Position numbers and translations under genes: made by a program
Assembly: GCA_016721305.1 (NCBI GenBank)
Contig: JADKIH010000016.1
Location: 11,037 to 75,036, forward strand
Length of the DNA stretch: 64,000 nt
DNA from: Bacteroidota bacterium
Lineage (GTDB): Bacteria > Bacteroidota > Bacteroidia > AKYH767-A > 2013-40CM-41-45
Direction of reading: 5' to 3'
The notes under the pieces: generated by a model
Databases searched by the model: none
What the model saw: only the letters and a program-made list of their open reading frames with translations
Told to the model about the DNA's origin: nothing
Shown: one piece after another, positions 38,372-62,671 of the stretch
How positions within the stretch are numbered: position 1 is the stretch's first letter
How the letters are laid out: the number at the start of each line of letters is the position of its first letter

Positions 38372-38640
38372 GCTCAATTGTCGGAATTCATAGTTTCAGG
38401 TTCAGTCAATCGATTCTGTCATCAATAAAATACGAGCATTTACTCTTGAGTTAAATACCATAATTGAGAGATCTTATGATTTGCTTTTTTGAACCGGAAA
38501 ATTCGTTGCAATGGTCTTTGCATTTGGTGTACAAACCCCGTTTTGGCTATTACCATTTGATTTTTGACTTGTGAAGAAGATTTCCCTTGCACAATTCCTT
38601 TTCGTATATTCGCTAGCCTATTTTGGCTAAGATCCATAGA

Positions 38641-42029: not shown

Positions 42030-42611
42030 ATGGCAGAAGACATTTTCCCGCCGCATTCATTGGTAAGTCGTGAGGAAAGATCCCGACTTCTGAAGCAGCA
42101 ACCGCTCGTTATCTGGATGACCGGACTTAGTGGTTCGGGAAAGACAACGCTGGCTAAATTGCTCGAGAAAGAATTGCTGGAGCGCGGTAAAATTGCTTAT
42201 TCGCTCGACGGTGATACACTGCGTGCCGGACTCAATAAGGATTTAGGATTCAGTGATGCCGACCGGAAAGAGAATGTCCGTCGTGCCGGGGAAATATGTC
42301 GGGTTTTGGCCGATGCCGGAATGATAGTAATTACTTCTTTCATTTCACCATTCAAAGCTGACCGCGATGCAGTGCGAGCACTTTTTCCCAAAGGGCAATT
42401 TATCGAGGTGTACGTAAAAGCATCCATCGAGGCCTGTGAAAAGCGCGACACAAAAGGCCTGTACAAAAAAGCAAGAGCCGGAGAAATCAAAAACTTTACC
42501 GGAATTGATTCACCTTACGAAGCGCCTGAGAAGGCAGAAGTTGTTGTGGATACGGAGAGTGAGAGTGTGGAGAAGAGCGTTTCGAAGTTGCTTACTTGCC
42601 TGGGAATTTAG
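42030..42611 (+). CDS. cysC: Adenylyl-sulfate (APS) kinase
   Basis: P-loop MTGLSGSGKTTLA, DGD.LR motif (LDGDTLRAGLNKDLGFS) and FISPF. The start is 2 nt after the ALDH-like stop. Confidence 0.9.
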   Translation: MAEDIFPPHSLVSREERSRLLKQQPLVIWMTGLSGSGKTTLAKLLEKELLERGKIAYSLDGDTLRAGLNKDLGFSDADRKENVRRAGEICRVLADAGMIVITSFISPFKADRDAVRALFPKGQFIEVYVKASIEACEKRDTKGLYKKARAGEIKNFTGIDSPYEAPEKAEVVVDTESESVEKSVSKLLTCLGI

Positions 42612-42707
42612 CCGGCAAAATTTCAAAAAAATACTCCGATTTTTATATCTTTACCCCACTATCAAGTGATTATTTTGTTTAAAATCTAAGCATCTAAGCA
42701 ACAACTA

Positions 42708-43640
42708 ATGTTCTCCTACAACCTAAACCACCTAAACGAACTCGAAGCCGAAAGCATTTTCGTGATTCGTGAAGTTGCAGCTCAGTTTGAGCGGCCGGTG
42801 TTGTTGTTTAGCGGAGGGAAAGATTCAATCATTACATCTTATCTGGCCCAAAAGGCATTTTATCCGGCGAAGATTCCTTTTGCCTTAATGCATATTGATA
42901 CAGGTCATAATTTCGAAGAGACGATTGCTTTTCGCGATCAATGGGTCGATAAATTGAAAGTGAAATTGATTGTACGTTCTGTCCAGTCATCGATCGATAA
43001 AGGAAGAGTGGTAGAGGAGAAGGGTCCGATGGCCAGCCGGAATTCGTTGCAGACGATTACTTTGCTTGATGCCATCGAAGAATTCCGTTTCGATGCAGCA
43101 ATTGGTGGAGCCCGCCGCGACGAAGAGAAAGCTCGTGCAAAAGAACGTTTCTTTTCTCATCGCGATGAATTCGGTCAGTGGGAACCTAAGAATCAACGTC
43201 CGGAATTGTGGACTTTATTTAACGGACGAAAAAATCACGGAGAGCATTTTCGTATTTTCCCGTTGAGTAACTGGACAGAATTAGACATCTGGAATTATAT
43301 ACAAAGAGAAAATCTGGATCTGCCGTCGATTTACTTCGCACACAAGCGTAAAGTATTCCGTCGTCAGAATTCTATATATGCATTTGCAGATTTCATGCAA
43401 TTGCTCCCTGAAGAAAAAACAGAAGAACTTACTGTTCGCTTCCGAACCATCGGTGATATGACATGTACCGGAGCTATGGAATCACAAGCTCACGATATCA
43501 AATCAATCATCGCCGAACTTCTCACCTCACGCCTCACCGAACGCGGAACCCGCATCGACGATCAGCGGAGTGAGAGTGCGATGGAGGATAGGAAGAAGCA
43601 GGGGTATTTTTTAGCATTAGTTAATTCGTTAATTAGCTAA
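42708..43640 (+). CDS. cysD: Sulfate adenylyltransferase subunit 2
   Basis: PP-loop LLFSGGKDS and conserved ...MEDRKKQGYF near the end. A 9-aa tail (LALVNSLIS) follows the usual GYF terminus. Confidence 0.9.
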   Translation: MFSYNLNHLNELEAESIFVIREVAAQFERPVLLFSGGKDSIITSYLAQKAFYPAKIPFALMHIDTGHNFEETIAFRDQWVDKLKVKLIVRSVQSSIDKGRVVEEKGPMASRNSLQTITLLDAIEEFRFDAAIGGARRDEEKARAKERFFSHRDEFGQWEPKNQRPELWTLFNGRKNHGEHFRIFPLSNWTELDIWNYIQRENLDLPSIYFAHKRKVFRRQNSIYAFADFMQLLPEEKTEELTVRFRTIGDMTCTGAMESQAHDIKSIIAELLTSRLTERGTRIDDQRSESAMEDRKKQGYFLALVNSLIS

Positions 43641-43770
43641 GGTTTAATGTGAGCATAGGGAATGATTGACCTGGGAAATCATTATTTAATTATGTAATGA
43701 TAGTTATATAGGATTGCCAATAATTAGCTAATCAGCCAATCAGAAAATTAACCGAATCAACTAAAACAAG

Positions 43771-45030
43771 ATGCCCACCCGCCAAGACATAGAACTCCTT
43801 CGTTTCACCACATGTGGTAGTGTGGATGACGGGAAAAGTACGCTCATTGGGCGGTTGCTTTTGGATACACGTAATATTTTTGAGGATCAGTTGCAGGCGT
43901 TGAAGGCTTCGAGCGAGAGACGGGGATTGTCGGAAATGGATTTGTCGTTGCTGACGGATGGATTGAAGGCAGAGAGAGAGCAGGGAATTACCATCGACGT
44001 AGCTTACCGTTATTTTTCTACTCCAAAAAGAAAGTTCATTATATCTGATGCTCCCGGACATTTGCAGTATACGCGCAATATGGTGACGGGTGCATCAACG
44101 GCCAATCTGGCTTTGATCCTGATTGATGCCCGTAAAGGAATGGTTGAGCAAACTCGACGACATGCATTTATTGCCAGCTTGCTGGGAATTCCGCATATGG
44201 TTGTTTGCATAAATAAAATGGATCTGGTCGATTGGGATCAGACAGTGTATGAAAATATTGTTGAAGAATTCCGAATGTTTTCTTCACGCCTGGATACACA
44301 GGATATTCAGTTCATTCCAATCAGCGCTAAGTTTGGCGATAATGTAGTAGACCGTTCGAAGAACATGAACTGGTACGAAGGAAGTACGCTCATGTTTAAT
44401 CTGGAAAACGTCCACATCAGCGGCGATCAAAATCACATCGATTGTCGGTTCCCTGTTCAATATGTTATTCGTCCGCAAGATGATCAGTTTCACGATTACC
44501 GTGCGTATTCAGGAAGAATCATCGGCGGTGTTTTTCGTCCGGGCGATAAAGTGATGGTCTTGCCTTCCGGTTTTACATCTAAGATTTCAAAAATCAATGT
44601 AGCTGATCGGGAAGTGTCCGAAGGTTTTTCACCTATGTCAGTTTCAATTCAGCTCGAAGATGATGTTGATATCAGTCGTGGCGATATGCTCGTCCGTGAA
44701 AACAATCTACCACAGACGGGACAGGAAATTGATGTGATGATTTGCTGGATGAACGAAAAGCCATTGATGGAAGGGAAAAGATACGTGCTCCGTCACACCA
44801 CACGCGAGTTGCGCTGTATGATCAAGGAGATTCGGTATAAAATTGATATTACCACCTTGCGTCGTCTCGAAAACGAAAAGCAACTTGGCATGAATGATAT
44901 TGGACGAATTCATCTTCGCACCACTCTGCCATTGTATTATGACAGTTACCGACGCAATCGCAATACGGGGAGTTTGATTCTCGTCGATGAAGCCACCAAT
45001 GAAACTGTTGGAGCCGGAATGATTCTCTGA
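43771..45030 (+). CDS. cysN: Sulfate adenylyltransferase subunit 1 (GTPase)
   Basis: G1 motif CGSVDDGKSTL, G3 motif DAPGH and G4 motif NKMD. 419 aa. Confidence 0.9.
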   Translation: MPTRQDIELLRFTTCGSVDDGKSTLIGRLLLDTRNIFEDQLQALKASSERRGLSEMDLSLLTDGLKAEREQGITIDVAYRYFSTPKRKFIISDAPGHLQYTRNMVTGASTANLALILIDARKGMVEQTRRHAFIASLLGIPHMVVCINKMDLVDWDQTVYENIVEEFRMFSSRLDTQDIQFIPISAKFGDNVVDRSKNMNWYEGSTLMFNLENVHISGDQNHIDCRFPVQYVIRPQDDQFHDYRAYSGRIIGGVFRPGDKVMVLPSGFTSKISKINVADREVSEGFSPMSVSIQLEDDVDISRGDMLVRENNLPQTGQEIDVMICWMNEKPLMEGKRYVLRHTTRELRCMIKEIRYKIDITTLRRLENEKQLGMNDIGRIHLRTTLPLYYDSYRRNRNTGSLILVDEATNETVGAGMIL

Positions 45031-45070
45031 TCAGTTTCAATTTATCCGCACTCATAAATTTTTTGCATAT

Positions 45071-45874
45071 ATGTCTGAACAATCCATTGCCCAACTTCTG
45101 ATAAATGCTGTTCAGACTTCCTTTCGGGCAGGATCTGAAATCATGAAGATTTACGATTTGGCTTTTGAAGTTGAACTAAAAGGAGATCTTTCACCTCTTA
45201 CGGAAGCAGATAAGGCGTCGCATGAACTTATTATAAAGGAGCTGTCGGCTTTTGGTTATCCCATTCTCAGCGAAGAAGGAAAATCGATTCCGTTTGAGGA
45301 ACGCACGGCCTGGACAAAATACTGGTGCGTGGATCCGCTCGATGGAACTAAGGAGTTTATCAAGCGAAATGGCGAGTTTACTGTGAATATTGCTCTGATG
45401 GATAAGGACACGCCAATTATGGGAGTCATTTACCAGCCGGTCAAAGAAGTGGCTTTTGCGGCTATTGTCGGAGGAAATGTTTATCGAATTGACTCGGCCG
45501 GTTTAGGCAAATTGTCAGCCGATACTCTGGACTCATACCGACTTACTGATACAGAAATCTCTTCGCAGGGGGAAATAAAAGTAGTTGCCAGCCGTTCTCA
45601 TCGCTCTGTCGAGACCGAAGATTTTATAGCGGACTTAAAAAAGCAAGGTTCAAAGGTTTTACTGGTTAACTCCGGAAGTGCTCTGAAATTTTGCTTACTT
45701 GCCGAAGGGAAAGCCGATATCTATCCCCGCTTTGCTCCAACGATGGAATGGGATACAGCTGCCGGGCATGCGATTCTAAAAGCCTGCGGCAGAAATATCA
45801 TCCTTTATCCGGGAACGGCAGAGATGAAATACAACAAACCTTCACTTGTTAATGACTGGTTCATTGCCCGATAA
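45071..45874 (+). CDS. cysQ: 3'(2'),5'-bisphosphate nucleotidase (PAP phosphatase)
   Basis: Inositol-monophosphatase family motifs: LSEE, WCVDPLDGTKEF and EWDTAAG. Confidence 0.85.
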   Translation: MSEQSIAQLLINAVQTSFRAGSEIMKIYDLAFEVELKGDLSPLTEADKASHELIIKELSAFGYPILSEEGKSIPFEERTAWTKYWCVDPLDGTKEFIKRNGEFTVNIALMDKDTPIMGVIYQPVKEVAFAAIVGGNVYRIDSAGLGKLSADTLDSYRLTDTEISSQGEIKVVASRSHRSVETEDFIADLKKQGSKVLLVNSGSALKFCLLAEGKADIYPRFAPTMEWDTAAGHAILKACGRNIILYPGTAEMKYNKPSLVNDWFIAR

Positions 45875-47189
45875 AATTCGTAGTATCATTCAGCGTTTCC
45901 GGAATGATAAGGAATATGCTGAACTTATTCGGACAAGTTTTCTTGCCTTGCTGGTACGAATGGCCGGAGTTATTACAGGCTTCGTTGTTACTCTTCTTAC
46001 TTCCCGTTTTTTTGGCGCTGATGCATTGGGCCTGGTTTCAATCTGTCTGGCGATACTAAGTTTTGCCTCTGTTTTCGGAAAGCTCGGACTCGATGTTGCT
46101 CTCATGAAATTTGTAGCTGAATATGCTATGAAAAATGATTACGGTACTATCAAGGCAATTTACCTGTCGGCGATGAAAGTGATTCTACCGCTAACACTGC
46201 TGATATCTGTTGCTCTTTATTTTCTTTCCGGTTTTATTGCAGAAAATTATTTTCATAAACCGTATCTGGAAGCAATTCTAAAAATCAATGCGTGGCTTGC
46301 CTTGCCGCTTGTTTTGATATTGGTGAACTCAGAATGTATTCGTGGACTGAAGAAGATTCGCGCATATACTTTTTTTCAAACTGTCTCGGTCAGTTTTTTT
46401 GCAATGATCGTATTGCTCATCGTTTCGCAAACTCATTCAGAAAAAGAAGTTCCGGCTTATGTGCAATTTGGTTGCATAGGCTTATCGGGTACACTAAGCT
46501 TAATTCTGTGGCTTTACTACAGCAAGTTTACTACATCCAAAGTTGTCGAGAAATTTCCTTTGCGCGAATTGATGAAAACTTCTTCGCCGATGTTTTTCAC
46601 AACACTCATGCAATTGCTGATGTCGTGGGCAGGAACGTTAATTCTCGCTGCGTGGAGTACGGAATCAGACGTAGGTATTTATAACGCACTCGTCCGTATT
46701 TCTGTCTTTACGAATATTACTATTCTTGCAATCAATAGTCTGGCAATGCCCCGCTTCGCTGAAGCATATGCGGCAGGGAAATATGATTTACTCAAGCAGA
46801 ATTCGCGTGAATCGTCACGCTTGATATTTGTAACTTCCTTGCCAATTTTCGTTGTCTTGTCGCTTTGCCCGGCTTTCGTTCTTTCTGTTTTCGGGAAGGA
46901 ATTCCCGAGCCATGAGGAAGCGCTTTATGTTCTTTTAGCAGGTCAGTTCATTATTACCTTCGTTGGGCTTCCTTCTCAAATCCTGAATATGACGGGTCGG
47001 CAACATGTGTTAAGGAATATTGCCATCGTTTCGGCGATCGTTAATATTACCTCTTGCCTGATACTTACGCCGGCTTACGGACTTATGGGTACTTGTATCG
47101 GACAGGTTTTTGGGATATTTACGTGGACTTTACTCTGCGTTCTGAGTGTGAAACGCCATTTTGGCTTTTACACGTTCTTTAGCCTTTAA
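45852..47189 (+). CDS. wzx: Polysaccharide flippase (Wzx, MOP superfamily)
   Basis: About 12 TM segments in the typical Wzx arrangement. The ATG at 45852 overlaps the cysQ end by 23 nt. Confidence 0.7.
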   Translation: MTGSLPDKIRSIIQRFRNDKEYAELIRTSFLALLVRMAGVITGFVVTLLTSRFFGADALGLVSICLAILSFASVFGKLGLDVALMKFVAEYAMKNDYGTIKAIYLSAMKVILPLTLLISVALYFLSGFIAENYFHKPYLEAILKINAWLALPLVLILVNSECIRGLKKIRAYTFFQTVSVSFFAMIVLLIVSQTHSEKEVPAYVQFGCIGLSGTLSLILWLYYSKFTTSKVVEKFPLRELMKTSSPMFFTTLMQLLMSWAGTLILAAWSTESDVGIYNALVRISVFTNITILAINSLAMPRFAEAYAAGKYDLLKQNSRESSRLIFVTSLPIFVVLSLCPAFVLSVFGKEFPSHEEALYVLLAGQFIITFVGLPSQILNMTGRQHVLRNIAIVSAIVNITSCLILTPAYGLMGTCIGQVFGIFTWTLLCVLSVKRHFGFYTFFSL

Positions 47190-47281
47190 TTCTCCAAAGC
47201 GCTTCTTTTCCTCCTTCATTTGTGGCCGGAAGACCTCAAAATTCCCTTTAGGTTTTGTACTTTCGTCGCTAGACAAAACAG

Positions 47282-48574
47282 ATGCTGAACGACGCCTTGC
47301 ATACTAAATTACATCCGCTGCTTGCATATACGCTGCTGTTTTTGATCTATACGTCTACGTTCCGAATATTTGCCACTTTACCTTTGGAGAGTATTCACCA
47401 ATCGTTGTCGACATTCGCCATCATACTCCTTTCGGGTTATTATTTGTTGAGCATGTTTCTCAACTTTCGTCGTAGCCGAATTACAAGGCTCGATATTTTG
47501 ATGTGGGTTTTTATCATCGTTAACTTCCTGGCCGCATTCAAAGGGCATGAGGTTTTTGGACAACCATACTACTACGGCATCATGGCTCAACGTTCGGTCT
47601 TGCTCTCGCTCTCCGGAATATTGCTGATATCGCTTCTGAATAAGGGATGGATTACCATTAATCAAGTAGAAAAATCATTCCTCTATATTTCACTGTCGCT
47701 CTTATTCATTTTCTACTTCTTCTTCCTCTTTGTTAACCCTGTGAAATTTACGGATGCCGAATTCGTTGCCTACTCTCCAATTCGCGGTTATCGCTACCGT
47801 TTCCAATTTGCCCTGGTTATCATGCTCTTGTTTTATTCGTTGTTTAAAATATCGCATGAACAAAAATCGCGTTTTGTGATCATCGCAATTATGATCTTAT
47901 TCTATCTGATCTATTTCCTTCAGTCGAGAACAACGTTGGTGGTATTAGCCATTACAATCATGATTTATTTCGCCCGTAATTTTACGACGAGGGAGAAACT
48001 TAGAAATACAATGATCTATGGTGGATTGGGATTCGTAGCTGTTACGTTATTGTTTTCGTTGGGATATACATCGCTCTTTGATAAATACCATTTGCTTTAT
48101 CAGAACGTGTTTAATGTATTTTTGGGTGAATCTCCGGATGAAGCATCTTCGGCTGTACGGTTTATGGAGTTTAATACGGCTTTAGATTATATCAAAAAGA
48201 ATCCACTCCTCGGAAACGGATTTATTTCGAATCAATGGAATGGAGGGTGGCACGATTTACTTGGGTATTTTTATCCGGTCGATATTGGCATTTTAGGAAA
48301 TGTTTTCGTATTCGGGATTCTTGGTACTGTCGTTATTTATCTTCCGTTTTTCTATTCATTGTCGATGTCAAGAAAGGTGAGAACGAATCACGTGTTTTTC
48401 AAAACGTGTGAGTACATGCTCCTGTTTTTCTTCCTCTGTATGTTCTTCTCCGCAGTAAATATTCGGGACTCAAGCAGTATTATCTTCCTGGTTTGTTTGC
48501 TCTATTATTTCAGATATCATTATTCACCGCAGACTGATGTATATTCAGTTTCGCCAAATCCTGTTACGACATGA
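47282..48574 (+). CDS. O-antigen polymerase/ligase-family membrane protein (Wzy-like)
   Basis: Polytopic membrane protein with one larger loop (about 48.1-48.3 kb, NGF..NQWNGGWH), as in the Wzy/O-antigen ligase family. Confidence 0.6.
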   Translation: MLNDALHTKLHPLLAYTLLFLIYTSTFRIFATLPLESIHQSLSTFAIILLSGYYLLSMFLNFRRSRITRLDILMWVFIIVNFLAAFKGHEVFGQPYYYGIMAQRSVLLSLSGILLISLLNKGWITINQVEKSFLYISLSLLFIFYFFFLFVNPVKFTDAEFVAYSPIRGYRYRFQFALVIMLLFYSLFKISHEQKSRFVIIAIMILFYLIYFLQSRTTLVVLAITIMIYFARNFTTREKLRNTMIYGGLGFVAVTLLFSLGYTSLFDKYHLLYQNVFNVFLGESPDEASSAVRFMEFNTALDYIKKNPLLGNGFISNQWNGGWHDLLGYFYPVDIGILGNVFVFGILGTVVIYLPFFYSLSMSRKVRTNHVFFKTCEYMLLFFFLCMFFSAVNIRDSSSIIFLVCLLYYFRYHYSPQTDVYSVSPNPVTT

Positions 48575-49479
48575 AGTTTCCTCAATTTATCGTAGCCGGA
48601 ACAGCGCGCGCCGGAACAACGGCTTTGTACGCCTATTTACGCCAGCACCCGCAGATTTTCCTTCCTGTTGTTAAGGAGCCTTGCTTCTTTACTTTCGCCG
48701 GCGAGGAAATTGAATTTACTAAAGGGAAATTTGCTTTTGCAGTGAACGATATTGAGGTTTACGGACAACTATATAAAAAGGCAGCAGAAGATCAGATTAC
48801 GGGTGATATTTCAACTCCCTATCTGTACAAGTACGAAAAGACAATATCAAACATTAAAATGCTTCACGATTATCCGGAGCAAATTAAAGTAATTATTATT
48901 CTTCGAAATCCGGTTGAGCGCGCCTACTCGCAGTACATGTGGCGAGTTCGTGATGGAAGGGAAGAGTTTACATTCGAAGAAGCGCTGGAGCAGGAAGCTA
49001 ATCGAATGAAAAAGAATTATAGCTTCGATTACTTCTATAAAGACAGGGGATTGTACTATGAACAGGTAAAGGCTTATTTGTCGAATTTCAAAAACGTCAA
49101 AATCTTTTTGTTTGAAGATTTGAAAACGAATCCGACACACACTCTTGCGGAAATTTGCAAATTCATAGGCGTGGATGACTCTTTTCATTTCGCCAAAAGA
49201 AATCCGAATGCCAGCTTTATTCCGAAATCGGCAATGTTGAGCAGATTAATGACAATAGAAAGCAAAACGAAATTTAAGCTTCTCAATTTTTTACCGGGCC
49301 AATTGCGATCAACTATTACTCAGCAATTGTTTAAACTGAATGCCTCTAAGCAAGAAATTCCAAAAATAAATCCGGATACAAGAACACGTTTAATAGAGTT
49401 CTTTCGTGATGACATATTAAAGCTGGAGCAATTAATTCAACGCGATTTGTCCGCATGGCTTGAGAAGGAGAAGGTATGA
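48571..49479 (+). CDS. PAPS-dependent sulfotransferase
   Basis: 5'-phosphosulfate-binding loop VAGTARAGTTALY and 3'-phosphate-binding motif ILRNPVERAYSQY. It overlaps the upstream gene by 4 nt. Confidence 0.85.
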   Translation: MKFPQFIVAGTARAGTTALYAYLRQHPQIFLPVVKEPCFFTFAGEEIEFTKGKFAFAVNDIEVYGQLYKKAAEDQITGDISTPYLYKYEKTISNIKMLHDYPEQIKVIIILRNPVERAYSQYMWRVRDGREEFTFEEALEQEANRMKKNYSFDYFYKDRGLYYEQVKAYLSNFKNVKIFLFEDLKTNPTHTLAEICKFIGVDDSFHFAKRNPNASFIPKSAMLSRLMTIESKTKFKLLNFLPGQLRSTITQQLFKLNASKQEIPKINPDTRTRLIEFFRDDILKLEQLIQRDLSAWLEKEKV

Positions 49480-50579
49480 GTATGGAAAGGAAAATAGCCA
49501 TTGTAGACCCCGTCGGCTGTAAAGCCGGCCTTGATCATTACGATCGGGAACTGGCTGCCTCTTTACGTAAACAAGGATTTTCTGTGGACATCTACAGCAA
49601 TTTTTCAGATACTGATGAAGAGCTTAGAGTCTTCCCATTTCGATTTTGGAGAAATCCTCTACTGATTCCTACTTTGTATTTAATTTATCGACGACTCATC
49701 GCCCGATGTGTAGCGACTAATATAAGAACCATTATCTGCCATTTGTTTCATGCGAATAAAATAGATCTCTGGTTTTTGAAACGTTGCAAACAGTTTAACT
49801 TATATACGATTGTTATTCTACACGATGTTGAAAGTCATTTGTCAAATACAGATAATGATCAGAAATTGGATGAGTGTCTCAATCAGGCAACTCAAATAAT
49901 CGTGCACTCGCAATTTTCCCGGGCTGAATTAGTGGCTAAATTCAATAAAAAGTACGAAGGAAATACAGTTACTATTCCACACGGGCATTTTCTTTCTCTT
50001 CCCACGCGTACATCGAGGATTGAGGCGTACAAGAAGCTTAAGTTAAACCCAAACAAAAAGTATGTTTTGTTTTTCGGAATGATTAAGCCCACAAAAGGCC
50101 TCGACGTTTTGATTAAGGCGATGAAAGATCAGAATGCTGATCTTATTATTGCCGGTCGTTTGAGAAAGCAATCATTCGATGAATTCGAGCAATTGATAAG
50201 CGAGAATAATCTGAGGGATCGGGTACATCGTTTTGTCAGATATATCAGCAATGATGAACGGGATTTGTTCTTTAAAGTGGCCGATTTAATTGTACTTCCG
50301 TATGAGAAGGTTTATCAAAGCGGAGTTTTGTTGATGGCAATGAGCTATGGTTTGCCTGTCGTTGTTTCGGATTTATTGCCATTCCGTGAAATTGTTCAGC
50401 ATAAGATAAACGGACTTGTCTTCAAGAAAGGTGATGTGGGCGATTTGTCGGAGAAAATTATGGAAGCTCTTTTAAAAACCGAGGAAACTGAATCCAGAGC
50501 AAAGAGAGCTCATGACGATATGAAAACCAATCACAGTTGGGATGATTTCGCCGATAAAGTGAAAGGAATGATTGGATGA
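49476..50579 (+). CDS. GT-B fold glycosyltransferase (family 4-like)
   Basis: C-terminal Glycos_transf_1-like region (LPYEKVYQSGVLLMAMSYGLPVVVSD...NGLVF). 4-nt overlaps with both neighbours. Confidence 0.8.
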   Translation: MSMERKIAIVDPVGCKAGLDHYDRELAASLRKQGFSVDIYSNFSDTDEELRVFPFRFWRNPLLIPTLYLIYRRLIARCVATNIRTIICHLFHANKIDLWFLKRCKQFNLYTIVILHDVESHLSNTDNDQKLDECLNQATQIIVHSQFSRAELVAKFNKKYEGNTVTIPHGHFLSLPTRTSRIEAYKKLKLNPNKKYVLFFGMIKPTKGLDVLIKAMKDQNADLIIAGRLRKQSFDEFEQLISENNLRDRVHRFVRYISNDERDLFFKVADLIVLPYEKVYQSGVLLMAMSYGLPVVVSDLLPFREIVQHKINGLVFKKGDVGDLSEKIMEALLKTEETESRAKRAHDDMKTNHSWDDFADKVKGMIG

Positions 50580-51667
50580 AAGTAGCAATTATAGGTACTC
50601 GCGGAATTCCGGCTGCCTATGGCGGTTTTGAAACTTTCGCCTTCCGTTTGTCTGCAGGTTTGGCAGAAGCAGGTATCGATATAACTGTGGTCAATGAGAA
50701 GTCACATGTGTGTACTATTCCATTGGCGAAGAATATTCAGGTTGTTCACTCTAATTACGACAAGTCTACGAACCCATTGCAATTCTATAGAGATTCTCTG
50801 CGAATGACGGAAAATGAGCATGACATTGTTTTGGTTTGCGGAGTGGGCGGTGCTTTCTTTTATCCGAATAAAAATGCAAGAGCTATAATTATCACCAATG
50901 TGGATGGCCTTGAACATTTGCGAAAGAAGTATACATTTTTGCAGCGGCGATTGGTGTACATGTTGCAGAGAATTGCTAACAAGCGAAGCGATTATCTTAT
51001 CGCAGATTCAAAGGAAGTCGAAAGCTATTGGAAAAAACGTTTTGCGAATTCTTCCGAAAAACTCCGCTCCATTTCTTACGGCGCCGATTTAATATCGCAA
51101 GCGAATGAGAGCCTGCTTCAAAAATTTGGAATAGAGGCAGAGAATTATTTTCTTGTTATTGCACGCTTGGTGCCGGAGAATAATATTGAAATGATTATTA
51201 ATGGGTTTAAAATGTCAGGCTCCCGGCGAAAGTTGGTAATACTGGGTGACACGAACGATAATCCATATAGTAGAGATGTGGCTAAAATGGCTTCTGATAG
51301 CATAATCTTCGCGGGTGCAATCTACGATGAAGAAATTGTACGTGCGTTGAGATTTCATGCTTTTGCATATCTTCATGGCCATTCTGTTGGTGGGACGAAT
51401 CCATCTTTAGTCGAAGCAATGGCCGCAAGTTGTGCTTGTGTTTGTTTTAAAACGGTATTTAATTCAGAAGTTACAAACGATAAGCAATTATCTTTTATTT
51501 CAAGCGATGAATTATCGGCGCAGCTGAATTTGCTTGAATCGAATGAAACATTACGCAAGCGAATGAAGAAAGATGCATTCGAACTTGCGAAGAATAATTA
51601 TTCATGGGAAGGAATCACGACTTCTTACATTACACTCTTTAATAAGCTACTCGGTGAGCGAAGATAA
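50576..51667 (+). CDS. Glycosyltransferase with a DUF1972-type N-terminal domain plus a GT1 domain
   Basis: MKVAIIGTRGIPAAYGGFETF is the characteristic DUF1972 start. The C-terminal half has HGHSVGGTNPSLVEAMA. Confidence 0.8.
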   Translation: MKVAIIGTRGIPAAYGGFETFAFRLSAGLAEAGIDITVVNEKSHVCTIPLAKNIQVVHSNYDKSTNPLQFYRDSLRMTENEHDIVLVCGVGGAFFYPNKNARAIIITNVDGLEHLRKKYTFLQRRLVYMLQRIANKRSDYLIADSKEVESYWKKRFANSSEKLRSISYGADLISQANESLLQKFGIEAENYFLVIARLVPENNIEMIINGFKMSGSRRKLVILGDTNDNPYSRDVAKMASDSIIFAGAIYDEEIVRALRFHAFAYLHGHSVGGTNPSLVEAMAASCACVCFKTVFNSEVTNDKQLSFISSDELSAQLNLLESNETLRKRMKKDAFELAKNNYSWEGITTSYITLFNKLLGERR

Positions 51668-52706
51668 ACAGATACGATTTTGGGGTGATGAACCTTTTGG
51701 CAGATTGGCAAGATTGGCTTCATCAACCTATTCCGGTCGTGAGATTGCTGATTCCGATTATCTCGAATGGGAGTATAGCGCCAATCCTGATGGGAATGCC
51801 ATCATTGCGGTGGAAGAGGAGAGGAAAAATCTGAATGGTCAATATTTGGTACTGCCACGAAAATATTGGGATGGAAAGAGTATTCTTCGTGGTTCGCTTT
51901 CGGTGAACACGCTTACTCATCCCGCAGTCCGTGGCAAAGGGGTTTTTCCGCGTCTTGCAGAAAAAGTTTATGAAGAATGTGTAAAGGGTAAGATTGATAT
52001 CACATTGGGATTTCCCAATCCGGCTTCTAAGCCGATATTTCTTAGTAAGCTTAATTTTCAAAGCATAGGTGAGCTTGATTTGTATGTGAAAACAATCAAT
52101 CCGATTCGTGCTGCATTTACCGTAATATTTAATCGAAGAAATAAAAGCGGTGAAGAAATATTTTCAAATAATGAAGAGGCGCATTCAAGTTCCGTTTCCA
52201 GATTCAGTTTTCAGAACGATTCAGAATTGTACCAAGCTTTTCTGAAAAAGTTCAATTCGGCTGATCGGATCACTACTTATCGTTCTCCTGAGTTTTTGAA
52301 ATGGCGTTATATGCAAGTTCCGATTCGACGTTATTCTATTCTCAAAGAGAAGAATGAAAATGGAATCACTGCTCTTGCTGTTATTCGTATGAAATACATT
52401 TATGGCCTGCGTTGTGGCATTGTTACCGATCTTATGACGGATGGAGAAGTAGATTCGGGAAAGAAAATCATCTCTGAAATTCACCGTATGTCGGCCACCG
52501 ATAATCTCGATTTGCTCATTTTCGCCGGCTCAGGAAATTCTCGCGAGGCAAAACTTGTAACCCAAAACGGTTTCCGTAAAATGTCGAGCAAGTTATTGCC
52601 ACAATCGTTGACAGCCATTCTACGGGTTCACAATACTGAAATTTCGGCGGAAGATTTCCCGGAGTCGAAGTGGTTTCTTACTTTCGGGGATTACGATATT
52701 TTTTAA
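51654..52706 (+). CDS. FemAB/GNAT-fold acyltransferase-like protein
   Basis: The ORF is open from 51573 but overlaps the previous gene by 95 nt. I prefer the GTG at 51654. The VRGKGVF acetyltransferase-like motif is present. Its position beside a DUF3473-type deacetylase mirrors PEP-CTERM-type EPS loci (from memory). Confidence 0.5.
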   Translation: MSEDKQIRFWGDEPFGRLARLASSTYSGREIADSDYLEWEYSANPDGNAIIAVEEERKNLNGQYLVLPRKYWDGKSILRGSLSVNTLTHPAVRGKGVFPRLAEKVYEECVKGKIDITLGFPNPASKPIFLSKLNFQSIGELDLYVKTINPIRAAFTVIFNRRNKSGEEIFSNNEEAHSSSVSRFSFQNDSELYQAFLKKFNSADRITTYRSPEFLKWRYMQVPIRRYSILKEKNENGITALAVIRMKYIYGLRCGIVTDLMTDGEVDSGKKIISEIHRMSATDNLDLLIFAGSGNSREAKLVTQNGFRKMSSKLLPQSLTAILRVHNTEISAEDFPESKWFLTFGDYDIF

Positions 52707-52707
52707 G

Positions 52708-53553
52708 ATGAAAATTCTGACGATCGACTTAGAAGACTGGTTTCATATTCTGGCTCATTCCGAAACGGAGCGACCTGAGCAATGGGAGCGGTTTGAAAGC
52801 AGAGTAGAGCGAAATACTGATCGTATTTTGGAAGCCTTAGATCAAAGAAATATTCGAGCTACTTTTTTTGTACTCGGATGGATTGCCGAGCGTTTTCCCG
52901 AGCTTGTGAAGAGAGTAGGCGAGAAGCATGAGCTTGCTTGCCATTCGTACAGTCATCAATTATTGTATAAGCAAAGCCGGAAGGAGTTTGCTGAGGATTT
53001 GAAAAGGTGTATTTCGACGATAGAGCAGGTTAGCGGACAGAAATTGCGTATTTACCGTGCTCCCGGATTTTCATTGCAACGCGACCATCATTATATTTTC
53101 GAAGAGCTCTGCAAAAATAAAATAGAAATTGATGCTTCAGTTTTCCCTGCCGTAAGAAATCATGGCGGTATTCCGGGATTCCCTTTTGCATCGCCGTGTC
53201 TGATAAAGGGAAGTAATTTCCTCATCAAGGAATTTCCGATGAGCACAAGTTCGCTTTTAGGAAAGCAAATTGTTTTCTCAGGTGGCGGATATTTTCGCTT
53301 GCTTCCTTATTCTATTATCCGGTCGAAAATGAAAAGTTCGGAATACGTGATGACGTATTTTCATCCACGCGATTTTGATCCGGAACAACCGATGATTCAA
53401 TCATTGCCGATGAAACGTAAGTTTATGTCGTACGTTGGCTTAAAAGGCTCTTTCGAAAAGTATAGTAAAATGCTGGATCAATTTCCACATACATCAATCG
53501 GACAGGCTGATGAGTCGATTGATTGGACGGGGGTGCCTGTGGTGCATTTTTGA
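52708..53553 (+). CDS. Polysaccharide deacetylase (DUF3473 / PEP-CTERM-locus subtype)
   Basis: MKILTIDLEDWFH start, NIRATFFVLG, the histidine motif CHSYSH and RAPGFS. Confidence 0.8.
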   Translation: MKILTIDLEDWFHILAHSETERPEQWERFESRVERNTDRILEALDQRNIRATFFVLGWIAERFPELVKRVGEKHELACHSYSHQLLYKQSRKEFAEDLKRCISTIEQVSGQKLRIYRAPGFSLQRDHHYIFEELCKNKIEIDASVFPAVRNHGGIPGFPFASPCLIKGSNFLIKEFPMSTSSLLGKQIVFSGGGYFRLLPYSIIRSKMKSSEYVMTYFHPRDFDPEQPMIQSLPMKRKFMSYVGLKGSFEKYSKMLDQFPHTSIGQADESIDWTGVPVVHF

Positions 53554-53565
53554 CGCATCGCTGAT

Positions 53566-53773
53566 TAGATGATTAGCTGATTGGGTGATTAGCTGATTAG
53601 CTGATGAAGGGGGCGCGGGTTTTATTCGACTTCTTGGCGGAAAGGTTAGAATTTGATGATTGGAGTGCATAAAAAAGCCACTTGCATTTTATTTCGTCCT
53701 ACAGATCGATCTTTTCTAAAATGCAAGTGGTATGGAATTGGCTCATCAGCTAATCACCTAATCAGCTAATCAT
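53566..53773. repeat. Inverted pair of GATTAGCT-type octamer arrays flanking a spacer of about 135 nt
   Basis: The left arm at 53566-53607 is gattagatgattagctgattgggtgattagctgattagctga. The reverse complement of the right arm at 53743-53773 is gattagctgattaggtgattagctgatgag. Confidence 0.7.
53678..53730 (-). terminator. Terminator hairpin for the sqr-tusE-dsrE operon
   Basis: A perfect 14-bp stem (ccacttgcatttta / taaaatgcaagtgg) with a 25-nt loop. On the minus strand it is followed by cTTTTTTat. Confidence 0.6.
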
Positions 53774-54264: not shown

Positions 54265-54287
54265 GATCTTGAGTTTTTAAACTGTTA

Positions 54288-54599: not shown

Positions 54600-54618
54600 A
54601 ATGTTTATTTTAGTCTGA

Positions 54619-55851: not shown

Positions 55852-56198
55852 AACGATTATTTTTTACTGTAACTTTTATACTGTAAAGGTAGAGTGAAGT
55901 TGGAGCGATTGTTATGAGTTAACTCAGATGCATTCATGCATTAAATCAAAAATCTTTGTAACCAATGTTACACAACTATTCCACTGATACTTCTAACTAG
56001 TCGTATTGATGTTGCATTGATGTTTTAAGAAAAAATGATCAAGCTCTATTTTGTATTTGGTGTGTAAATACCGTTTCCGGGAAAACTGAATTTTGAGGAA
56101 AAGCTTGTGGAAATTGTGAGAGGCAGGGGAGCAAAAACGGTAGAAAAGTGAGGTCTTCAGGAGAGCTTCCTTTTCAAAAAAAGCCCTATCTTTCGACC

Positions 56199-57791
56199 AT
56201 GGCCAGATTCCTGTTTTTAATTGTTGCTTTGCTGAGTTTTTCGGCAACATCTGCTCAAGAATACCTGTTTCCGCTCAATCGCGATGTCAATACTCGTATA
56301 GAGTCTTTTATCAATGCTGATACTACCGGCTTTCACTCTTCGGTAAAACCGTTTACAATGGCCGATGTGCAACGTGTCGTGCCGATTGATTCTATATTTC
56401 ATCCGATCGTTGGTAGCGGAAAGTTTTATTCAACTTGGGTCGGAAGGAAATTGAGAAAGGAACATTTGTTTGTGGTCAATGAAGATGACATTCTGCTTTC
56501 AGTCGATCCGATTTTCAATGTCCAGCTCGGACGTGAATCGGAAGCGAAAAGAAATTTATATGTGAATACGCGTGGTGTGCTCGTTCAGGGAAATGTGAAG
56601 AATAAGTTTTTCTTCTATACAGGTTTTCGCGAAAATCAGGCGCGTTATGCAACTTATGTCGATAGTTCGGTTCGGTTAACAGGTGTTGTTCCCGGACAAG
56701 GGATCGTTAAGTTCCTGGCAAAAGAGACATTTGATTTTAGTCAATCGTTTGGCGGTATTGCTTACACATTAGACAAGCATTTTGATTTTCTTTTTGCACA
56801 CGATAAGAATTTCATCGGCGATGGATATCGTTCTCTTGCTTTATCTGATAACGCATACAATTATCCGTTTCTGCGAATTAATATGACGTTTTGGAAATTT
56901 CGCTACTCGGTGATTTATGCCGTGCTGCGCGATTTGCAAACTCCGATTGATCCGAATGTGGGTTTTTATAAAAAGTATTCTACTACGCACAATTTGGATA
57001 TCAATATTGGTAAGAAGAATAAGCTTACAGTCAGCATTTTTGAAACTGTTATGTGGAAACCGGCGGCTTCACGTGGTTACGAGCTGGCTTATCTGAATCC
57101 GATCTTATTCTTACGACCGGTAGAAAACTCTCTCGGTTCACCGGATAATGTTTTGCTTGCTTCTAATGTGCGATGGAAAATTAATTCGCATCATACAATT
57201 TACGGACAGCTCATGCTCGATGAGTTTTTACTCGACGAAGTTCGCTCCGGAAAAGGTTGGTGGGGAAATAAACAAGGCTTTCAGTTGGGTTACAAAACGT
57301 GTGATGTTTTCAAAGTTCGTAATTTGAATTTCCAAACGGAATTCAATTTCGTTCGACCGTTTACCTATCAGCATCGCAGCTCTGAACAAAATTATGTACA
57401 CTACAATCAGGCAATCGCTCACCCGCTGGGAGCAAACTTTATTGAATCGGTTAGCTTCGTGAATTATCGAATCGGTAATTTCTTTGCGGAAGTGAAAATT
57501 CAATATGCGCAGTTGGGAAGAGATACAGCGAATGTAAATTTGGGTAGTAATATATTCGACAGCTACGATAGTCGCTCAGCTGACTATGGTTTCCGTGTTT
57601 TAAACGGAAGAAAATGCACGCTTTCGTCTGCCGATTTACGAGTGAACTATCTGGTAAATCCGCGAACTAATTTTGTCATAGAAGGCGGAGTAACTATGCG
57701 AACATTAAAAAGCGATATTCAAAACGATAAATCAACAATTATTTATTTCGGACTTCGAACTTCGCTGGAAAATTTCTACTTCGATTTTTAA
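56199..57791 (+). CDS. Outer-membrane protein, capsule-assembly Wzi / gliding RemB-like
   Basis: The ATG at 56199 gives the signal peptide MARFLFLIVALLSFSATSAQ. The N-terminal YLFPLNRD...HSSVKPF pattern and a C-terminal barrel ending ...ENFYFDF fit this class. The family is assigned from memory only. Confidence 0.45.
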   Translation: MARFLFLIVALLSFSATSAQEYLFPLNRDVNTRIESFINADTTGFHSSVKPFTMADVQRVVPIDSIFHPIVGSGKFYSTWVGRKLRKEHLFVVNEDDILLSVDPIFNVQLGRESEAKRNLYVNTRGVLVQGNVKNKFFFYTGFRENQARYATYVDSSVRLTGVVPGQGIVKFLAKETFDFSQSFGGIAYTLDKHFDFLFAHDKNFIGDGYRSLALSDNAYNYPFLRINMTFWKFRYSVIYAVLRDLQTPIDPNVGFYKKYSTTHNLDINIGKKNKLTVSIFETVMWKPAASRGYELAYLNPILFLRPVENSLGSPDNVLLASNVRWKINSHHTIYGQLMLDEFLLDEVRSGKGWWGNKQGFQLGYKTCDVFKVRNLNFQTEFNFVRPFTYQHRSSEQNYVHYNQAIAHPLGANFIESVSFVNYRIGNFFAEVKIQYAQLGRDTANVNLGSNIFDSYDSRSADYGFRVLNGRKCTLSSADLRVNYLVNPRTNFVIEGGVTMRTLKSDIQNDKSTIIYFGLRTSLENFYFDF

Positions 57792-60078: not shown

Positions 60079-60079
60079 A

Positions 60080-61285: not shown

Positions 61286-61304
61286 TCAATTAATTTAGGA
61301 CGGG

Positions 61305-62612: not shown

Positions 62613-62671
62613 GTGTGCAAAGACGCGTCCTCTCAGGCTTTTTAGTACTTTCGTCTGCTTAACTGATTCGC

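Follow-up and report, generated by a model that had tools for sequence, protein, structure and literature searches.

Does the PAPS made by a gene block in which sulfate activation is joined to a Wzx/Wzy-type glycan locus serve as sulfuryl donor for a surface glycan, or does it feed ordinary sulfate assimilation? The question is raised by 11 genes, all on the + strand (42030-53553), in a window of 64 kb from a Bacteroidota bacterium (GCA_016721305.1, contig JADKIH010000016.1, 11,037-75,036; all coordinates are positions in this window) of an uncultured freshwater/wastewater lineage of Bacteroidota. The ORFs match exactly the coordinates and single strand proposed by an earlier sequence-only reading, in the order cysC-cysD-cysN-cysQ-wzx-wzy-ST-GT-GT-GNAT-deacetylase (ST, sulfotransferase; Table 1). 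The gaps are not tiny throughout, as that reading had it, but measure 92-130 nt in three cases, with gaps of 96 and 130 nt flanking cysD. The overlap of 23 nt that it described between cysQ and wzx is correct provided that wzx starts at ATG 45852, the mechanical ORF beginning at TTG 45846, and gene calls in relatives show it at the same length. Every family call passed our profile searches, with CysC, CysD, CysN and CysQ exceeding the curated NCBIfam cut-offs. On genomic grounds, the block is probably a self-sufficient module that sulfates a lipid-linked surface glycan.

Table 1. Genes of the block and its downstream flank, with positions in the window and supporting matches.
Feature	Coordinates	Strand	Evidence
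cysC, APS kinase, APS to PAPS	42030..42611	+	PF01583 (APS_kinase) 6.4e-67; TIGR00455 254 bits vs cut-off 138.7
cysD, ATP sulfurylase small subunit	42708..43640	+	TIGR02039 426 bits vs cut-off 396.6; NF009214 427 vs 413
cysN, ATP sulfurylase GTPase subunit, unfused to CysC	43771..45030	+	TIGR02034 562.9 bits vs cut-off 336.1
cysQ, 3'(2'),5'-bisphosphate nucleotidase, PAP hydrolysis	45071..45874	+	TIGR01331 249.4 bits vs cut-off 228.8
wzx, flippase for lipid-linked glycan unit	45852..47189	+	PF01943 (Polysacc_synt) 2.8e-20, MatE, PF13440; 9 hydrophobic segments
Wzy_C-family membrane protein, polymerase or ligase	47282..48574	+	PF04932 6e-9
PAPS-dependent sulfotransferase, heparan-sulfate ST type, predicted cytoplasmic	48571..49479	+	PF13469 (Sulfotransfer_3) 1e-13; PF00685 (Sulfotransfer_1) 4e-13
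GTa, GT4-family glycosyltransferase	49476..50579	+	PF00534 1e-26; PF13439
GTb, GT4-family glycosyltransferase, DUF1972 N-terminus	50576..51667	+	PF00534 1.5e-14; PF09314 7e-14
Tandem-GNAT acyltransferase	51654..52706	+	Start ATG 51573 or GTG 51654; AF2 and Foldseek
CE4 polysaccharide de-N-acetylase with DUF3473, predicted cytoplasmic	52708..53553	+	PF01522 3.5e-21; PF11959 4.7e-32
Outer-membrane protein, conserved, weak Wzi resemblance	56148..57791	+	PF14052 24 bits, under cut-off; signal-anchor-like N-terminus
WecA-like polyprenyl-phosphate HexNAc-1-phosphate transferase, likely priming enzyme	57801..58853	+	PF00953 1.4e-38; TIGR02380 5e-43; 10 hydrophobic segments
UDP-GlcNAc 2-epimerase and UDP-ManNAc dehydrogenase-type enzyme	58951..61285	+	PF02350 9e-120; PF03721/PF00984/PF03720
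Second wzx and second Wzy_C gene	61305..63934	+	PF01943 1e-11; PF04932 3e-12

The gene order from cysC to the deacetylase is kept in 39 species-level Bacteroidota genomes, so these genes do not lie together by chance, and graded identities across the clade indicate vertical descent. In the loci that could be tested, the sulfotransferase gene is accompanied by wzy (37/37), wzx (35/35) and cysQ (33/34), as well as by cysN (27/30), cysD (25/29) and cysC (23/28); the other glycan genes are retained in the testable clade loci at 34/34 (GTa), 33/33 (GTb), 32/32 (GNAT) and 29/30 (deacetylase). The adjacency of cysQ, wzx, wzy and the sulfotransferase gene is thus conserved clade-wide, cysQ adjoining wzx in 33 of the 34 testable genomes. 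Two loci (L030 and L035) retain cysQ-wzx-wzy-ST with cysCDN not adjacent, cysC/cysD have been lost to IS elements in another (L027), and a fourth (L042) has no cys genes nearby; these last two cases suggest that the PAPS supply at the locus is dispensable, or situated elsewhere, in some lineages. The adjacency cysQ-wzx-ST also recurs independently in two other phyla, in Sulfurovum (rml genes-cysD-cysN-cysC-cysC-cysQ-wzx-ST-GTs-priming transferase) and in one Spirochaetota genome (cysC-cysQ-wzx, followed by three sulfotransferase genes).

This distribution bears on whether the cys genes might simply serve cysteine synthesis, with the glycan locus merely adjacent and the sulfotransferase drawing on the general PAPS pool or being unrelated. 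We regard this as improbable. The CysD and CysN profiles are indistinguishable from those of assimilatory enzymes, and the 96- and 130-nt gaps beside cysD could house separate promoters; against this, the block includes cysC and cysQ of the PAPS branch, the latter translationally coupled to wzx, and PAP is the by-product of the sulfotransferase reaction. Moreover, the linkage holds in 33/34 genomes and was re-invented in Sulfurovum and Spirochaetota, cysQ stays by wzx in L030 and L035 even where cysCDN are not adjacent, and the IS-mediated loss in L027 is easier to tolerate for an accessory function. Finally, as the sequence-only reading had stated for cysH, cysI and cysJ, a search of all ORFs of 150 aa or more across the 64-kb window detected neither a PAPS/APS reductase nor a sulfite reductase domain. 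The profiles, the homology of the sulfotransferase and the conserved linkage therefore support the proposal that PAPS is made here as sulfuryl donor for a candidate sulfated glycan.

The identity of the sulfotransferase is well founded. Full-length homology links it to the solved bacterial sulfotransferase 3rnl (E 7e-48; profile 1.4e-68), and the matches that come next are the heparan-sulfate enzymes NDST1 (1.7e-11) and 3-OST-1/3/5 (3e-7). It does contain both PAPS-binding motifs that had been claimed for it, GTARAGTT spanning residues 10-17 and RNPVERAYS residues 112-120, and 17 homologs (48-73 % identity) show no variation at R13, K35-E36 (E36 being part of a KEPCFF motif), R112 and S120. 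By analogy, R13 (5'-PSB loop) and R112/S120 (3'-PB) are candidate PAPS-binding residues. No signal peptide or TM segment was found in the protein, and neither was found in the deacetylase or the GNAT protein, which places the modifying enzymes in the cytoplasm.

It is highly improbable that the sulfotransferase modifies lipids, small molecules or protein tyrosines instead of a glycan, its position within a glycan locus being incidental. Bacteroides reportedly employs a cysDNC-linked sulfotransferase for steroids, in work attributed to Yao et al. 2022, and Arg occupies the PSB-loop position that is Lys in heparan-sulfate enzymes, a feature also found in tyrosylprotein sulfotransferases. Nevertheless, the gene has a 4-nt overlap with each of its neighbors, wzy and GTa, the solved homologs above threshold are carbohydrate sulfotransferases except for 3rnl, whose acceptor is not given, and weak 5x2b matches, and paralogs lie inside Wza-Wzc-Wzx-Wzy loci of other Bacteroidota.

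For a glycan acceptor, the neighboring deacetylase suggests another chemistry, in which the CE4 enzyme would free a HexNAc amine and an NDST-like sulfotransferase would N-sulfate it, leading to a heparan-like GlcNS. The best characterized homolog is indeed the N-sulfotransferase domain of NDST1, the cytoplasmic de-N-acetylase is part of the block in 29/30 loci, and the literature reports N-linked sulfate in sludge EPS, measured through cleavage with nitrous acid. However, the difference in E-value between NDST1 and 3-OST is small, family members from Sulfurovum, Parafilimonas, Brocadia and Spirochaetota lie in loci that lack a neighboring deacetylase, and the tandem GNAT paired with the deacetylase (32/32) is a more obvious consumer of the amine, so that we consider N-sulfation quite improbable. 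The label FemAB/GNAT-like given earlier to the latter protein holds only in its second part. Its GNAT Pfam match alone falls under the cut-off, but its AF2 model (pLDDT 91.8) has the GNAT fold and matches two-domain GNATs in Foldseek (2ozg, 2e-15, N-myristoyltransferases and Eis); it is thus a tandem GNAT, from a narrow family of 58 proteins, and not a FemAB protein. The deacetylase scored 249.6 bits against TIGR03006, under the cut-off of 276.2.

The Wzy-like polymerase of the sequence-only reading does belong to the Wzy_C family, but it may be a ligase. The only significant PDB fold match of its AF2 model (pLDDT 76) is the WaaL ligase 7tpg (E 7e-4, TM 0.57), although this search is unable to separate Wzy from WaaL, since both are in the Wzy_C family and there is no Wzy polymerase structure among the matches. 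The protein is also the slowest-evolving of the glycan part, with 53-85 % identity across the clade, similar to housekeeping genes and atypical for a repeat-unit-specific polymerase, whereas the glycosyltransferases are only 31-52 % identical. Additionally, profile searches of the 64-kb window found no Wzz/Wzc or Wza, and there is a second Wzy_C gene 14 kb downstream. A WaaL/PglL-type ligase would imply that the product is not a capsule or EPS polymer but a short sulfated oligosaccharide, joined to proteins via the general O-glycosylation of Bacteroidota or to lipid A-core, and the term polysaccharide is thus not secured. We consider this possible, though on the unlikely side; export genes may be unlinked, as is xssT of synechan (PMC8205485), and a Wzi-like outer-membrane protein is conserved beside the block.

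Indeed, the locus does not end at the deacetylase, as had been proposed, but continues downstream to this outer-membrane protein and to a WecA-like priming transferase. The former is present in 26/26 testable clade loci and directly adjoins the deacetylase in the relatives L001-L005, and a 2.6-kb insertion in this genome parts the WecA-like gene from the block; a dsrE2-tusE-SQR island inside the locus is a lineage-specific insertion. The epimerase/dehydrogenase pair that follows is kept downstream in relatives and may supply precursors either to the glycan of the block or to the next glycan unit, which begins with the second wzx and Wzy_C genes and extends past the window edge. Upstream, an aldehyde dehydrogenase described earlier as truncated is actually one half of a split ALDH16, unrelated to the locus.

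Judging from family membership and gene linkage, CysD and CysN would convert sulfate and ATP into APS, which CysC would phosphorylate to PAPS. On the cytoplasmic side of the inner membrane, the WecA-like enzyme would prime undecaprenyl phosphate with HexNAc-1-phosphate, and the two GT4 glycosyltransferases would extend the unit, from which the CE4 enzyme would remove an N-acetyl group, the freed amine being most likely re-acylated by the tandem GNAT. With PAPS as donor, the soluble heparan-type sulfotransferase would sulfate the unit, most likely on a hydroxyl, and CysQ would turn the inhibitory PAP into AMP. Wzx would then flip the finished unit, which the Wzy_C protein would polymerize or ligate to an acceptor. 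Retention of the glycan at the surface may be aided by the conserved outer-membrane protein.

The combination of PAPS genes and sulfotransferases in a polysaccharide cluster is an already documented kind of system, and the novelty assigned to the locus by the sequence-only reading was somewhat overstated. Cobetia marina KMM 1449 and Vibrio sp. KMM 8419 have NMR-proven sulfated CPS and clusters containing cysN/C, cysD (also cysQ in Cobetia) and sulfotransferase genes, a combination termed by the authors a hallmark of sulfated polysaccharide synthesis (PMC11766843, PMC11641403). These are Gammaproteobacteria, however, with a Kps-type ABC transporter and KpsSC priming instead of Wzx/Wzy, a sulfate permease gene in Cobetia that has no counterpart in the profile searches of our window, and strain-variable clusters of 70-80 genes, whereas the present block is compact and conserved clade-wide. 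The xss cluster of Synechocystis sp. PCC 6803, tied by genetics and chemistry to the sulfated EPS synechan, resembles the block in depending on Wzx and Wzy and in having sulfotransferases that modify the repeat unit; it differs in being plasmid-borne and in having a PCP (XssK) and the regulators XssQRS, none of which were seen here, and the article text searched contains 0 occurrences of PAPS or cysQ, functions both encoded in our block (PMC8205485). Likewise, cluster wps-1 of Actinoplanes missouriensis, an actinomycete, combines Wzx/Wzy/Wzz with a heparan-sulfate-type sulfotransferase, WpsH, and its sulfated EPS is, as ours, a predicted product, but PAPS genes were not reported (PMC13390465).

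Within the sulfotransferase family itself, paralogs with 40-44 % identity occur in Wzx loci of Parafilimonas terrae DSM 28286 (L046; Wza-Wzc-Wzx-ST-Wzy-ST-ST-epimerase-ST-GT2-ST), Chitinophagales and Ca. Brocadia, with Wzy in two of the three. Unlike the present block, with its single sulfotransferase gene, these loci contain several each and no cys genes within 10 kb, and that of Parafilimonas, the only one checked for them, has the Wza/Wzc that our window lacks. A dedicated PAPS supply has parallels elsewhere. Genes BT0412-BT0416 of Bacteroides thetaiotaomicron are said to combine cysD-cysN-cysC with a sulfotransferase and to make PAPS as donor and not for assimilation, similarly to our block, although the acceptors are reportedly cholesterol and other steroids and the sulfotransferase is of a different subfamily; to our knowledge, they include no wzx, wzy or glycosyltransferase genes. 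In rhizobia, a dedicated second ATP sulfurylase/APS kinase provides PAPS to sulfate secreted or surface glycoconjugates (NodPQ/NodH, LpsS), the acceptors being a Nod-factor lipochitooligosaccharide or LPS, and these genes are not known to lie between cysQ and a pair of wzx and wzy genes. If the function proposed here is correct, the locus would reveal a maker of sulfated glycans in the Bacteroidota, a group usually regarded solely as degraders of such polymers.

The six-frame ORF list reproduces exactly the unbroken plus-strand run from cysC to a polysaccharide deacetylase, at positions 42030–53553, that the sequence-only reading had described, and every family assignment proposed there passed profile searches against Pfam and NCBIfam (coordinates and conservation are collected in the table). 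The description of its spacing as tiny gaps or overlaps was accurate for the 23-nt overlap between cysQ and wzx, if wzx starts at ATG 45852, but not for the spacers cysC-cysD (96 nt), cysD-cysN (130 nt) and wzx-wzy (92 nt). The cysQ/wzx overlap is identical in the gene calls of relatives and is read here as translational coupling. A scan for promoters and terminators between 38 and 58 kb was uninformative on operon structure, because its counts equaled those of shuffled controls (47 vs 43.7 and 19 vs 19.5), and the Bacteroidota-type motif TAnnTTTG was not found in the intergenic spacers.

Features of the window and, for genes scored in the 39 Bacteroidota loci, number with the same order and orientation over number with sufficient flanking sequence
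Feature	Position	Strand	Same order and orientation	Remarks
SprB-repeat gene (2084 aa)	5317-11571	+		
SprA gene (2337 aa)	17911-24924	-		
Por_Secre_tail protein	29464-31362			
GT2 (polyprenyl-phosphate-sugar-synthase-like) and abutting 751-aa GT-C (PMT_2/EpsG-like) membrane protein	35399-38371	+		
deoC	38623-39546			TIGR00126, above cut-off
495-aa aldehyde dehydrogenase	39589-41076	+		matches ALDH16 residues 11-475 (6mvr)
311-aa aldehyde-dehydrogenase half	41092-42027	+		matches ALDH16 residues 491-766 (6mvu, E 1e-62), the non-catalytic C-terminal pseudo-ALDH domain
cysC		+	23/28	
cysD		+	25/29	
cysN		+	27/30	
cysQ		+	33/34	
wzx		+	35/35	
wzy (Wzy_C protein)	47282-48574	+	37/37	
Sulfotransferase	48571-49479	+		
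Glycosyltransferase GTa (GT4-type)	49476-50579	+	34/34	
Glycosyltransferase GTb (GT4-type)	50576-51667	+	33/33	
GNAT-like protein		+	32/32	
Deacetylase		+	29/30	
dsrE2-like, tusE/dsrC-like and type III sulfide:quinone reductase (SQR) island, 2.6 kb	53782-55851	-		between deacetylase and outer-membrane gene
Outer-membrane protein	56148-57791		26/26	
WecA-like priming transferase	57801-58853			
Second glycan unit: WecB-like epimerase, UDP-ManNAc-dehydrogenase-type, second wzx, second Wzy_C	58951-63934	+		runs past window end
Tandem arrays of TGATTAGC	16703-16755; 43720-43741; 53562-53608; 53742-53772			intergenic

The predicted module for synthesis and clearance of PAPS is complete, with CysD (TIGR02039, 426 bits vs cut-off 396.6), CysN (TIGR02034, 563 bits vs 336, without fusion to CysC), CysC (TIGR00455, 254 bits vs 139) and CysQ (TIGR01331, 249 bits vs 229) all above curated equivalog or subfamily cut-offs. 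As had been noted from the sequence, genes for assimilatory reduction are missing from the window: CysH, CysI/J and Sir domains are absent from all ORFs of at least 150 aa in the 64 kb, and none was found in the 20-kb loci of relatives.

The sulfotransferase (302 aa) aligns over residues 4–298 with the solved sulfotransferase 3rnl in a sequence search of the PDB (E 7e-48) and, beyond it, only with animal carbohydrate sulfotransferases, namely the N-sulfotransferase domain of NDST1 (1.7e-11) and the heparan sulfate 3-O-sulfotransferases (3-OST) 1, 3 and 5. A profile of its family retrieved 3rnl (1.4e-68), NDST1 (3e-12) and 3-OST (3e-8), and the protein scores above cut-off with PF13469 (Sulfotransfer_3, 52 bits, cut-off 27) and PF00685 (Sulfotransfer_1, 49.7 bits, cut-off 22). 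By homology, it is predicted to be a PAPS-dependent sulfotransferase of the Sulfotransfer_1/3 fold and of the heparan-sulfate sulfotransferase type. The family is large, with at least 3165 members below E 1e-10 among the 3972 candidates that the word prefilter left to be scored and that bound this number.

Both PAPS-binding motifs recognized in the sequence-only reading are in place, with their key residues invariant in 17 homologues of 48–73 % identity: the 5′-phosphosulfate-binding (PSB) loop, of pattern GxxK/RxGT[TS], is GTARAGTT at residues 10–17 (G10, R13, G15 and T16 invariant), and the 3′-phosphate-binding motif RNPxxRxxS is RNPVERAYS at residues 112–120 (R112, P114, R117 and S120 invariant), aligning with INPADRAYS of NDST1. 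The PSB loop has an Arg in place of the Lys of NDST and 3-OST; Arg also occupies this position in tyrosylprotein sulfotransferase. The motif K35-E36-P37-x-F39-F40 is invariant in the same homologues and has KEAHFF as its counterpart in 3rnl. E36 sits at the place corresponding to what we take to be the catalytic base of these enzymes, a Glu ca. 22–28 residues past the PSB Lys or Arg (NEVHFF in 3-OST, EEIQFF in NDST1). The HMM alignment with NDST1 is shifted around E36, pairing the family motif G[ED]xSTPYL with FEKSANYF of NDST1, whereas a spacing count on the NDST1 and 3-OST-1 sequences would favor E36 as a candidate base.

We found no signal peptide or membrane segment in the sulfotransferase, which must thus work on the cytoplasmic side, the site of PAPS synthesis; we infer that, if the glycan depends on Wzx, the undecaprenyl-linked unit would be sulfated before flipping. 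The gene overlaps by 4 nt both wzy and the glycosyltransferase gene GTa. That its product has a non-glycan acceptor seems to us most unlikely, with the Arg of tyrosylprotein sulfotransferase on one side and, on the other, its carbohydrate sulfotransferase relatives and its overlaps with glycan genes.

The flippase is assigned to Wzx by PF01943 (73 bits, cut-off 28.2), a MatE match and at least nine hydrophobic segments, and the product of wzy by Wzy_C (36 bits, cut-off 31.7). An AF2 model of the Wzy_C protein, of moderate quality (pLDDT 76), had the WaaL ligase 7tpg as its sole match (E 7e-4, TM 0.57), which cannot separate a polymerase from a ligase. The Wzy_C protein is also the most conserved of the glycan block, with 53–85 % identity across the clade vs 30–52 % for GTa, GTb and the GNAT-like protein (31–52 % for the two glycosyltransferases alone), and all of the 120 homologues listed, from 131 found, are at least 53 % identical; this is the opposite of the usual behavior of O-antigen polymerases. 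Additionally, Wzz, GNVR and Poly_export domains, indicative of a chain-length regulator or Wza, are absent from window ORFs of at least 150 aa, although such genes may be unlinked. The WaaL match, the high conservation and the lack of Wzz, Wzc and Wza in the window make a ligase role a real possibility. A ligated oligosaccharide with no polymer, a variant of the main model, is possible if somewhat unlikely, the Wzy_C assignment itself being compatible with either activity. No ABC-transporter or Kps domains (kpsMT/kpsDE, kpsSC) were found in the window. Priming is assigned to the WecA-like transferase (PF00953, 1.4e-38; TIGR02380, 5e-43), whose gene lies two genes past that for the deacetylase in relatives and was found, at the threshold used, in 11 of 22 testable loci.

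The second glycosyltransferase, GTb, has a DUF1972 N-terminus. The protein following it had been labeled FemAB/GNAT-like, which is right at the level of the fold: its AlphaFold model (pLDDT 91.8, pTM 0.90) matches two-domain GNAT acyltransferases (2ozg, 2e-15; N-myristoyltransferases; Eis), which share their architecture with Fem transferases. Its family is narrow (58 proteins), and the cytoplasmic CE4 deacetylase (DUF3473) is its constant partner. PDB sequence searches with the Wzy_C, outer-membrane and GNAT-like proteins gave nothing useful. A TIGR03006 match of the deacetylase led us to consider a PEP-CTERM/XrtA exopolysaccharide locus, which was rejected: the score (249.6 bits) is below the cut-off of 276.2, the GNAT-like protein lacks the corresponding NCBIfam match (TIGR03019) and the window contains no exosortase.

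On the simplest reading of this pair, the deacetylase would remove an N-acetyl group and the predicted acyltransferase would then re-acylate the sugar, with acyl-CoA or aminoacyl-tRNA as donor. The CE4 de-N-acetylase and the NDST-like sulfotransferase might otherwise be a split bacterial equivalent of NDST acting on the undecaprenyl-linked unit and yielding an N-sulfated hexosamine; with the NDST1 similarity in its favor and the constant presence of the GNAT partner to be accommodated, we regard both this joint action and N-sulfation as such as decidedly improbable. If true, the sulfated polymers detected chemically in wastewater biofilms, 'heparan-like' and in part N-linked, would stem at least partly from this widespread freshwater and activated-sludge clade.

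A scan by alignment of the sulfotransferase, with one genome per species (GTDB), identified 50 loci, 39 of them from Bacteroidota MAGs, among which is the complete genome of Ca. Pollutiaquabacter aromativorans. Their sulfotransferases are 41–74 % identical to that of the window, and their habitats comprise (Danish) activated sludge, rivers, lakes, glacier-fed streams, soil and an oil-sands pond. The adjacency of cysQ, wzx, wzy and the sulfotransferase gene, whose conservation had been proposed as a check, is maintained in these relatives (see table). With one of them (locus L001) as the query, the identity of every gene drops smoothly with distance, which indicates that the block is vertically inherited and rules out cassette replacement as the cause of the low identity of GTa, GTb and the GNAT-like protein. 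These three evolve fastest; the Wzy_C protein is as slow as CysD and CysN, near the housekeeping-like neighbors.

Exceptions to this conservation are instructive. Loci L030 and L035 retain cysQ-wzx-wzy and the sulfotransferase gene but lack neighboring cysCDN, the 7 kb around L042 are free of cys genes, and in L027 IS21- and IS3-type elements replace cysC/cysD; the locus has decayed or been rearranged in some relatives, L006 included. In L027/L006 (5–16 kb; 3.07-Mb contig, MFD04716.bin.2.246), the deacetylase and outer-membrane genes look truncated. These exceptions show that the tightest link is that of cysQ with wzx and the sulfotransferase gene, as expected if CysQ removes the PAP made by the sulfotransferase. 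That the cys genes serve assimilation alone is improbable: cysQ keeps its place beside wzx in loci without nearby cysCDN, and reduction genes are missing from the 64-kb window.

In relatives, the deacetylase gene is directly followed by that of a conserved outer-membrane protein of 533–549 aa, with weak similarity to Wzi, below cut-off. Past it lie, not in every relative, genes for the WecA-like enzyme, a UDP-GlcNAc 2-epimerase, a UDP-ManNAc-dehydrogenase-type enzyme and a second wzx/Wzy_C pair. In the window, the second glycan unit suggests that a ManNAcA-containing glycan is encoded beside the predicted sulfated one, in tandem. A search past the window end for Wza/Wzc, made with the second Wzy_C protein, found matches only on contigs of 1.9–2.7 kb; on one short metagenome contig (L057), a GT4 gene comes next.

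The dsrE-SQR island interrupts this arrangement in the window, and its dsrE and dsrC are shared only with the closest relative (L007; 90 and 89 %, respectively). Its SQR scores 645 bits on the NCBIfam 'selenoprotein subtype' model, yet the ORF is uninterrupted. The 8-nt unit TGATTAGC has 14 matches, vs 0.44 expected, and none of the 58 loci retrieved from relatives contains it. At 53.5 kb, two arrays make up an inverted repeat of 33 nt (94 % complementary); the 139 nt between them, at the insertion's left junction, include a 14-bp hairpin without mismatches.

Upstream, deoC and the two aldehyde-dehydrogenase genes form a tight cluster abutting cysC, and relatives show the same synteny. By their ALDH16 matches (see table), the two genes are a split ALDH16, a separate unit outside sulfation; the solved enzyme consists of one chain of 767 residues, and the split pair lies beside the deoxyribose-phosphate aldolase gene throughout the clade. 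For the 311-aa gene, 2 nt from cysC, we discarded both a pseudogene created by locus insertion and a PAP/PAPS-binding accessory, given its ALDH16 match and its 62–79 % identity in relatives. Further upstream, the GT2/GT-C pair is of a type that commonly modifies glycans in the periplasm. Two relatives (L004 and L005) lack it between deoC and the gene of an outer-membrane beta-barrel, so that it was probably inserted in this lineage. The SprB-repeat and SprA genes (gliding/type IX secretion) and the Por_Secre_tail protein confirm a chromosomal Bacteroidota context. Neither the Rfam nor the tRNA scan of the window gave a match.

Overall, the PAPS made at the locus is probably used by the sulfotransferase to sulfate the lipid-linked glycan of the same locus, in a pathway deduced at every step from protein families and linkage. 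CysDN and CysC would produce PAPS, while the WecA-like enzyme would prime Und-P and GTb and GTa would extend the unit, whose amino sugar may be remodeled by the deacetylase and the GNAT-like protein. The unit would then be sulfated at the cytoplasmic face, with CysQ removing PAP, flipped by Wzx, polymerized or ligated by the Wzy_C protein and, putatively, retained at the surface by the outer-membrane protein.

Comparable loci recur independently in other phyla. A Sulfurovum MAG (Campylobacterota) carries rmlA, rmlD, an rmlB-like gene, cysD, cysN, a DUF2061-APS-kinase gene, cysC, cysQ, wzx and a sulfotransferase gene, followed by GT2, an unassigned membrane-size ORF, GT4, GT2 and a Bac_transf priming enzyme. 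Its additional APS kinase (Sulfurovum sp. GLR145, locus L045, 6556–7281) has an N-terminal DUF2061 predicted membrane domain and is next to the ordinary second cysC. A Spirochaetota MAG has cysC-cysQ-wzx and then three sulfotransferase genes. Glycan loci of Chitinophagales, of Ca. Brocadia and of a cultured strain, Parafilimonas terrae DSM 28286, also contain several copies of the family; the Parafilimonas locus (L046, NZ_FOXQ01000016.1, 1979–14933) reads Wza-Wzc-Wzx-ST-Wzy-ST-ST-epimerase-ST-GT2-ST, with five sulfotransferases (ST). This member of the Chitinophagaceae would be a ready experimental model for sulfated exopolysaccharides of Bacteroidota.

In rhizobia, NodPQ accompany NodH or LpsS, and in Bacteroides thetaiotaomicron cysDNC is reportedly linked to a steroid sulfotransferase. 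Sulfated capsules, from clusters that combine PAPS-synthesis and sulfotransferase genes, have been proven by NMR in Cobetia marina KMM 1449 and Vibrio sp. KMM 8419, the cluster of the former also containing cysQ and a sulfate permease (PMC11766843, PMC11641403); however, their assembly is of the Kps/ABC type, and the window block resembles them in its predicted sulfation only. Synechan of Synechocystis is the characterized case of Wzx/Wzy with a sulfotransferase, with no PAPS genes reported in its cluster (PMC8205485), and in Actinoplanes wps-1 is predicted to be a Wzx/Wzy cluster and includes a sulfotransferase of the heparan type (PMC13390465). With these precedents, the kind of block is already known, and the locus, whose sulfation is predicted from its genes, would come as no surprise to those who study how bacteria make glycans. 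Particular to it are that all the genes for supplying and clearing PAPS are compactly joined to a Wzx/Wzy_C pair, that cysQ and wzx overlap, and that the block is conserved over a whole uncultured Bacteroidota clade, as opposed to strain-level variability.

A cysQ gene overlapping wzx next to a sulfotransferase gene is a simple genomic marker of predicted producers of sulfated glycans, and compact bacterial modules of PAPS and sulfotransferase genes are also of interest to those who would make sulfated polysaccharides in microbes. Bacteroidota are generally seen as consumers and degraders of sulfated polysaccharides, and in one metagenome study of a mat, none of the Bacteroidetes MAGs was found to have a sulfotransferase. 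Sulfated, glycosaminoglycan-like polymers have been measured in aerobic and anaerobic granular sludge, where the genes were stated to be unknown and BLAST with reference sulfotransferases gave few matches. The presence of this locus in activated-sludge MAGs, together with that of the sulfotransferase family in Ca. Brocadia, provides concrete candidate genes for the sulfated polymers of sludge.
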